Assembly: GCA_964016885.1 (NCBI GenBank)
Contig: OZ024743.1
Span: forward strand, 229,152,001 to 229,216,000
Origin: Eledone cirrhosa
Taxonomy: Eukaryota
Length of the DNA: 64,000 bases
Reading direction: 5' to 3'
Within the stretch, counting starts at the first letter, position 1; each line of letters begins with the position of its first letter. A model generated the notes under the pieces. The model searched no databases. It was not told the DNA's origin and worked only from the letters and a program-made list of their open reading frames with translations. The position numbers were made by a program, and so were the translations under genes. Of the stretch, positions 45,185-45,505 are shown one piece after another.

Positions 45185-45505
45185 AAATAACTCCAGTTCC
45201 CCAGTGAATTAACAACCCAACAAGGAACTGGGCATATCAGAGTATTGACAATATTATACACCTAAACAACATATGTACTTGTCTATACCATACTAATTCA
45301 AACTGCCTGAAGAGGTCACAGCCAAAGATGGTTGTCACTGAAATATATATAGCAGTAATAAACGAAGCTAAATTTTAATCATTTGACTTTTATTTAACTT
45401 TATTTTACACTACTCCGGAGTAACCAAACCAACCTGCGCACTTCGTCGAGTGCTCCAGCCTGCATACTGAGGTGTTGGTATACAACCAACATAAACTCAA
45501 AATCT
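45185..45505 (+). mobile_element. ~320-bp structured island, putative Penelope-like pseudo-LTR or retrozyme-like element
   Basis: Unique sequence embedded in (TA)n, containing a hammerhead motif directly followed by AATAAA, plus three other hairpins. Confidence 0.65.
45302..45356 (+). ncRNA. Type I minimal hammerhead ribozyme
   Basis: Stem I ACUGC/GCAGU; core CUGAAGA (45307-45313); stem II GGUCACAGCC/GGUUGUCACU with one C-C mismatch; GAAA (45340-45343); palindromic UAUAUA in place of stem III; NUH site AUA at 45349-45351. Confidence 0.75.

Follow-up and report, generated by a model that had tools for sequence, protein, structure and literature searches.

The closest described relatives of the sequence reported here are Penelope-like elements (PLEs) of the Hydra clade, for which Craig et al. 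(2021, PMC8557442) give as defining features the motifs RWK and DKT (the latter from DKG), a CxCx5C linker, CxxC and CxH, and the absence of GxKF/Y; members of the clade carry hammerheads and insert into (TA)n. Opposite-strand pairs of metazoan PLE hammerheads 100–700 bp apart and a circular-RNA template are both already in the literature (Cervera and de la Pena, 2014, PMC4209133; PMC6765202), the circular template having been proposed for PLEs in the former. The transcription start of Penelope is placed within its pseudo-LTR (PMC2377424), and the tail that PLEs carry at one end is given as 30–40 bp (PMC8557442) or 31 bp (PMC3846280). For the Poseidon PLE of the green anole, work in vitro describes two internal starts and extension of both strands, with hammerhead cleavage not required (Frangieh et al., 2024, PMC11167929).

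The window analysed here, a 64-kb stretch of DNA, contains an island of about 320 nt inside a (TA)n-type array. We are highly confident that this island represents the terminal repeat, with its ribozyme, of a Hydra-clade PLE that encodes an ORF: a short one-armed copy, likely reverse-transcribed into nicked (TA)n by the element's own reverse transcriptase (RT) and GIY-YIG endonuclease. The match to the family runs from 45187 to about 45506 (+), and the usual 5' edge of other copies is at 45185. The island is thus described as a solo pseudo-LTR, or long-ended arm, 5'-truncated at the family hot spot and lacking an inverted partner arm. Its target array extends on the left over 42334–45186 and on the right over 45507–46397, where it ends at an assembly gap. 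The solo pLTR, the multi-copy family and the (TA)n setting proposed by the first-pass annotation all hold; its suggestions of a retrozyme or non-autonomous family, and of impairment by a G-U pair, do not.

The hammerhead is a minimal type I motif at 45302–45356 (+), with cleavage predicted after A45351. Stem I pairs 45302–45306 with 45352–45356 through five Watson-Crick pairs; the core consists of CUGAAGA (45307–45313) and GAAA (45340–45343); and stem II (45314–45339) has 10 pairs, a single C-C mismatch (45317/45336) and a 4-nt loop. The palindromic AUAUAUAU at 45343–45350 replaces a stable stem III, and U45350-A45351 precede the predicted cut, so that the core nucleotides, both stems, the UH triplet and the palindromic stem III are all present, as had been described for this part of the (TA)n array. 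A strict type I descriptor matches the window once, at the island, and matches none of 200 locally shuffled windows. The three extra hairpins that had been claimed were also found: one just behind the 5' boundary (45193–45231, +, −12.8 kcal/mol) and two further downstream (45438–45453 and 45472–45492). Folding of the 325-nt island gave z = −2.15. The Rfam scan of the window, which had been suggested as a check on the hammerhead, yielded no match at gathering score, and the nine matches at E ≤ 10 included no hammerhead family.

The motif AATAAA follows the ribozyme directly (45357–45362, +). Nothing indicates a role as poly(A) signal, because copies end 45 or 145 nt beyond it and then run directly into TA or CT repeats, as a rule without an A tail. 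In older copies it may form a bulge in a modelled extension of stem I; pair probabilities for an extended stem I around AATAAA were only 0.00–0.08, and we rejected such a stem for the folding considered here.

The island hammerhead resembles the minimal type I hammerheads of metazoan PLEs in its short stem I, long stem II, extra nucleotide after A9, palindromic stem III and predicted dimer (PMC4209133; PMC6765202). It differs from those described in PMC4209133 in the stem II C-C mismatch, present in 99 of 100 arms of the family, and in having mostly U before GAAA. In an 80-nt context the predicted probability is about 0.6 for stem I, 0.5–1.0 for stem II and just 0.09 for stem III; in a 322-nt context that of stem I drops to 0.13. 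Stem III is predicted at +4.7 kcal/mol as a monomer hairpin, versus −3.2 kcal/mol for a self-duplex of the same 8 nt. This is the fold profile of PLE hammerheads reported to cut slowly and as dimers (PMC4209133; PMC6765202), and the island hammerhead would likewise be expected to cut slowly, mainly as a dimer formed through the AUAUAUAU palindrome. The cut form would not be necessary for insertion of the island.

The family is very abundant. In a genome of 3.0 Gb, a 35-nt exact ribozyme pattern has 5,836 matches and its reversed control none, as the claim of a multi-copy sequence would lead one to expect; a tail pattern matches 2,254 times and an ORF-start pattern 76 times. A DNA search with the island scored 40 candidates and yielded 62 matches; many of these are 97–99% identical across the whole island. 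Upstream of the island, longer copies have some 1.2 kb of non-coding sequence and then a GIY-YIG region. An adjacent ORF with RT and GIY-YIG features is present in the longer copies: at all 10 loci with an endonuclease region the ribozyme lies downstream, intact in nine of them at a distance of 1.2–1.3 kb on the same strand, and with a deletion in the tenth. In tandem copies the 3' end of the island continues into a 5' UTR, with an ATG about 55 nt past the tail. Sixty such tail-to-body junctions occur in the genome, and 40 of these copies, retrieved in full for ORF analysis, show a complete element unit of about 4.1 kb. The short copies are collinear with the 3' ends of ORF-bearing copies, which are up to 98.6% identical to the window copy; the same sequence forms the 3' end of the ORF-bearing element, and the identification as a solo pLTR of a PLE is thereby borne out.

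Among the 40 junction copies a single ORF is unbroken (locus L274); it encodes 892 amino acids. It contains RWK, ADKT at 119, YRDD at 351 and, at 771–788, a GIY-YIG-like IVY...YIG, followed or accompanied in its C-terminal part by a CxCx5C linker at 752, CxxC at 850 and CxH at 878. It has neither GxKF/Y nor CCHH, and there is a single cysteine between VY and YIG. Of 7,998 scored candidates, 42 are homologues at E ≤ 1e-20; 40 of these 42 contain DKT/DKS, 28 RWK/RWR and 26 CxCx5C. Pfam recognised nothing relevant in the 892-residue protein, only DUF2701 at E = 0.094, and its GIY-YIG model scored 20.1 bits (E = 0.00078) against the endonuclease of another copy, below the cutoff of 22.6. Rfam and Pfam thus both miss Hydra-clade PLEs, and such islands therefore remain unannotated.

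The family shares with the Hydra clade (PMC8557442) the motifs RWK, DKT, CxCx5C, CxxC and CxH and the lack of paired cysteines inside GIY-YIG. In both, the hammerhead is close to the 3' end, insertion is into (TA)n, copies may be 5'-truncated, partly tandem or inverted, and one end carries a tail. Features of PLEs in general are also seen: pseudo-LTRs arising from partial tandems, an inverted 5'-truncated copy and the one-ended tail. The sequences of stems I and II match no row of File S2 of PMC8557442. As placed by its motifs, the island family is a new one within the known Hydra clade. Its element is larger than published Hydra elements (4.1 kb and 892 residues, compared with 1.1–3.0 kb in PMC8557442 and a homologue median of 702 residues), and so departs from the shortness of the clade, a tendency to be under 3 kb. 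The extra length is due to the 1.2-kb 3' UTR and to two low-complexity inserts rich in T/R/N/P/S/G, at residues 482–611 and 703–750 between the RT thumb and the endonuclease, which are missing in most homologues and resemble the N-rich inserts described for rotifer Penelope elements (PMC3846280). We also noted fragments of other PLE ORFs with the same cysteine pattern (L033:1192-2340, L035:2532-3941, L043:7755-8858, L053:4651-6590 and L046:3700-4649). Several Hydra-type families, recognised as such by their motifs, coexist in the genome.

The ends of the copies were analysed in an unselected set comprising the first 100 exact ribozyme matches on contig C1, all of which were retrieved. Of these arms, 89 run directly into a dinucleotide repeat. 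Their 3' ends fall at two fixed positions separated by about 100 nt: 53 at a short end (S, about 45407; 45403–45407, + in the window), 43 at a long end (L, about 45506) and four elsewhere, so that the short end is used by about half of all arms. The sequence between the two sites (45408–45506, +), containing the two downstream hairpins, we call the tail. Back-to-back pairs nearly always have one end of each kind: 19 of 20 unselected pairs are S+L (P = 1.6e-5 if the ends were independent), as are 37 of 38 in a similarity-selected set. The exception among the 20 unselected pairs is L+L, and one of its arms is an upstream pseudo-LTR reading on into the element body. Among the 40 copies retrieved in full, the ORF-bearing arm has the S end in 19 and the L end in 18. 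Since it ends at S or L about equally, neither arm always copies the other, and since in long copies each arm can hold sequence absent from the other, both are likely to be RNA-templated. Pure snap-back copying between arms is thereby ruled out as a general rule, either arm being able to carry the ORF; for short symmetric palindromes it is possible.

The two ends are reminiscent of anole Poseidon, where two start sites downstream of the hammerhead also define a tail, targets are AT-rich and uncut RNA serves as template (PMC11167929), as it would in the island family. There are three differences from the account given there: in Poseidon the ORF starts inside the hammerhead, whereas the ATG of the island family is about 210 nt past the cut site; the tail of the island family is non-coding, unlike that of Poseidon; and the Poseidon start sites show no strand difference, whereas inverted pairs of the island family nearly always have one of each. 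The tail, at about 100 nt, is also longer than the 30–40 bp given for PLEs (PMC8557442). A long tail may nevertheless be usual in the Hydra clade, because, of the ends measured in two other hammerhead families in the flanks, 29 of 31 and 13 of 13 lie 30–59 or 130–159 nt past the cut, these two families having a tail motif in common, and because the published Hydra consensuses, as we computed from File S2 of PMC8557442, end 26–66 nt (12), 81–149 nt (11) or 351 nt (1) after stem I.

Two further features of the 3' ends were seen. A (CT)n run followed by (TA)n occurs after 10 of the 43 long ends and none of the 53 short ones (for example at L044, L031 and L010), which suggests slippage on the last bases of the element when copying starts. 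In addition, short ends can lie tail to tail across a few TA units (C1:48460069/48460252 and C1:51769850/51769993, at L132 and L135); these are elements inserted into each other's TA flanks.

The 5' ends of short copies are concentrated at a hot spot, 45185–45190 (+), which in the family lies within an 8-bp palindrome. Thirty-five of the 100 unselected arms start at 45182–45190; expressed differently, 35 of the 74 arms that reach this edge stop there, compared with 2.1 expected, where two arms leaving the retrieved stretch and one meeting a gap were scored as passing. These 35 arms comprise 13 symmetric palindromes, 11 joined to a partner broken elsewhere and 11 without a partner, the class to which the window copy belongs; its 5' junction could also represent 8 nt left over from an inverted arm since lost. 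Tandem copies behave differently in their upstream pseudo-LTRs (60 matches, 59 measurable): 21 of these reach the edge and none stops at it (Fisher P = 1.7e-5). Thirty-six of the 59 start upstream of the cut site and just one starts at it (45350–45354), and a linear hammerhead-cut monomer was on these counts rejected as the main template.

At the family's 5' edge, TCA-TAT is in our estimation initiator-like, with a CCAAT about 60 nt upstream. In the simplest reading, short copies would be run-off products at the 5' end of a linear RNA starting near 45185; on the sequence evidence we consider this evenly balanced between right and wrong. Long copies would have come from a template that has no end at 45185, either a multimer or a hammerhead-cut circle.

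Alternatively, the fixed edge might be an effect of the local sequence, the 8-bp palindrome allowing the cDNA to snap back, to anneal a partner arm or to pair with TA repeats, in line with the self-priming model of PMC3846280. We regard this as a serious contender, though short of an even chance. The 13 symmetric arms are perfect palindromes centred on the motif, some with inverted arms of just 20–37 nt; however, the 22 arms that are not symmetric still differ from the upstream pseudo-LTRs (Fisher P = 5e-4). Junctions also gather at another ATAT palindrome, close to 45269, but there are far fewer of them although it is nearer. Palindromes are reported at the 5' ends of rotifer pLTRs (PMC3846280). 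A purely local effect would be expected to act on long cDNAs too.

A less probable explanation, and one we consider unlikely, is a non-autonomous daughter family: the short copies would have a master of their own, retrozyme- or SINE-like and either solo (320 bp) or palindromic (540 bp), which is transcribed independently from 45185 and mobilised by the protein of the full element. This would account for the small number of ORF starts relative to ribozymes (about 76 versus 5,836), for a 5' edge shared by 35 arms and absent from upstream pseudo-LTRs, and for several near-identical palindromes of 540–550 bp; the hot spot, however, is found in old and young variants alike and with the many different junctions enumerated above, and the short copies are collinear with ORF-bearing 3' ends to the high identity already given. 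Nor did we find, in the loci examined, the head-to-tail monomer arrays that mark retrozymes; copies were solo or head to head. Animal non-LTR retrozymes (PMC7229834; bioRxiv 10.64898/2026.07.22.740005) resemble the short copies in being about 320 nt long and low in GC, with a type I hammerhead and no ORF, but they are described as head-to-tail monomers with canonical hammerheads, whereas the island copies, solo or head to head, are parts of an element that encodes an ORF. Non-LTR retrozymes are recognised by head-to-tail monomers and the lack of an ORF-coding parent, and the island family has the reverse on both counts. Because of this arrangement and the collinearity with an ORF-bearing element, we conclude that the island is not a retrozyme, and the proposal of a separate non-autonomous ribozyme retroelement falls: its sequence is the 3' end of an ORF-bearing element and, in tandems, also the 5' leader. 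We note that a different hammerhead family with a short stem II is repeated several times per locus in the same orientation (L142; L031:4081; L146:1544), and this may be a true tandem retrozyme.

It had further been suggested that the G-U pair closing stem II impairs the window copy. The nucleotide concerned, U45339, is present in 71 of the first 100 exact ribozyme-pattern matches (C in 29; counted by hand) and in 55 of the 56 arms belonging to the youngest family variant, and on our own reading of File S2 of PMC8557442 a U precedes GAA in 17 of 25 published Hydra-clade hammerheads, as G-U in three and U-U in 14. What is private to the window copy is U45332, also forming G-U, which occurs in none of the first 100 exact matches. 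It lies in mid-stem, where it still pairs (probability 1.0), and weakens the predicted fold by 2.4 kcal/mol. Impairment by the closing pair is improbable: G10.1-C11.1 is termed highly conserved among PLE hammerheads in general (PMC4209133), and the fold of the window copy is predicted to be weaker (−10.9 kcal/mol) than those of the young majority (−13.3) and of an older copy (−16.0), but U45339 prevails in the family, in its youngest subfamily and in the published Hydra hammerheads, and the additional weakness stems from U45332. Of four contig sets, which are informative on family variants only, set X1 has C at 45332 in 99.6% of depth and at 45339 in 36%; U45332 makes up less than 1% of depth in an independent set of contigs. 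U45332 seemed overrepresented in long arms (30 of 100 arms), but this was rejected as a search artefact of using the window copy as query, because the change is absent from the first 100 exact pattern matches. Covariation in the stems, scored on four sequences only, amounts to one two-sided and three one-sided changes, a level reached in 118 of 500 shuffles; the two-sided change, in stem II, comes from a sister family. Within the family, ribozyme and flanks are conserved about equally.

The surroundings of the island contain other elements. An apparently unbroken open frame of 1,211 codons at 53891–57526 (−) has endonuclease and reverse-transcriptase features and is presumably of RTE-type, LINE-like origin. 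Other LINE-type reverse-transcriptase fragments lie between the TA arrays at 39714–41723 (−) and 47004–49040 (−), and a near-identical piece was found in L052. A sequence of 60–70 nt is present in inverted copies at 36479–36555 (+) and 38824–38900 (−), bordering the TA array at 35.2–38.8 kb, and resembles the 3' terminus of a short interspersed repeat, one likewise targeting TA. Neighbouring TA repeats contain at least five more hammerhead families (L031, L036, L037, L046, L074, L078, L090, L132, L162, L178 and others); two of them have the same short and long ends and a common tail motif, and one is a sister family with a compensatory change in stem II.

These observations can be arranged into a mechanism. 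The element's protein would prime cDNA synthesis at two internal positions of the RNA separated by 100 nt, one for each DNA strand, and a complete insertion event would yield two back-to-back arms. The island copy would have been primed at the long site and copied to the 5' end of an RNA likely to begin near 45185, its second arm having never been made or having been lost. A more far-reaching combination, which we offer tentatively and regard as rather doubtful taken as a whole, is that a protein dimer carries out asymmetric twin priming, producing S and L cDNAs on opposite target strands; that linear RNA from 45185 gives the short copies and a hammerhead-cut, re-ligated circle the long tandems; and that a structured tail of 90–100 nt is the norm in the Hydra clade. 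Solo and palindromic short copies would then be run-off products of the linear RNA, and long tandems would pass both the cut site and 45185 unstopped because their template is circular.

The hammerhead itself is expected, being part of the definition of the Hydra clade. A search of the literature, in which subscription journals and supplements were thinly covered, turned up no paper describing the island family, though a published consensus of it may exist, and none on 5' stops of PLE copies that depend on position; in the literature searched we found no account of short copies stopping at the 5' edge while upstream pseudo-LTRs pass it. The family is of value as test material: it is young and very abundant, at least one of its ORFs is unbroken, its 3' ends are exact at two sites and its 5' stop is sharp. 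It could be used to address open points of the Penelope cycle, namely the purpose of the hammerhead, the origin of tandems and inverted arms, and whether the template is linear or circular. If the combined reading is true, the genome would lend support to the circular intermediate long proposed for Penelope elements, an intact ORF being available for tests.
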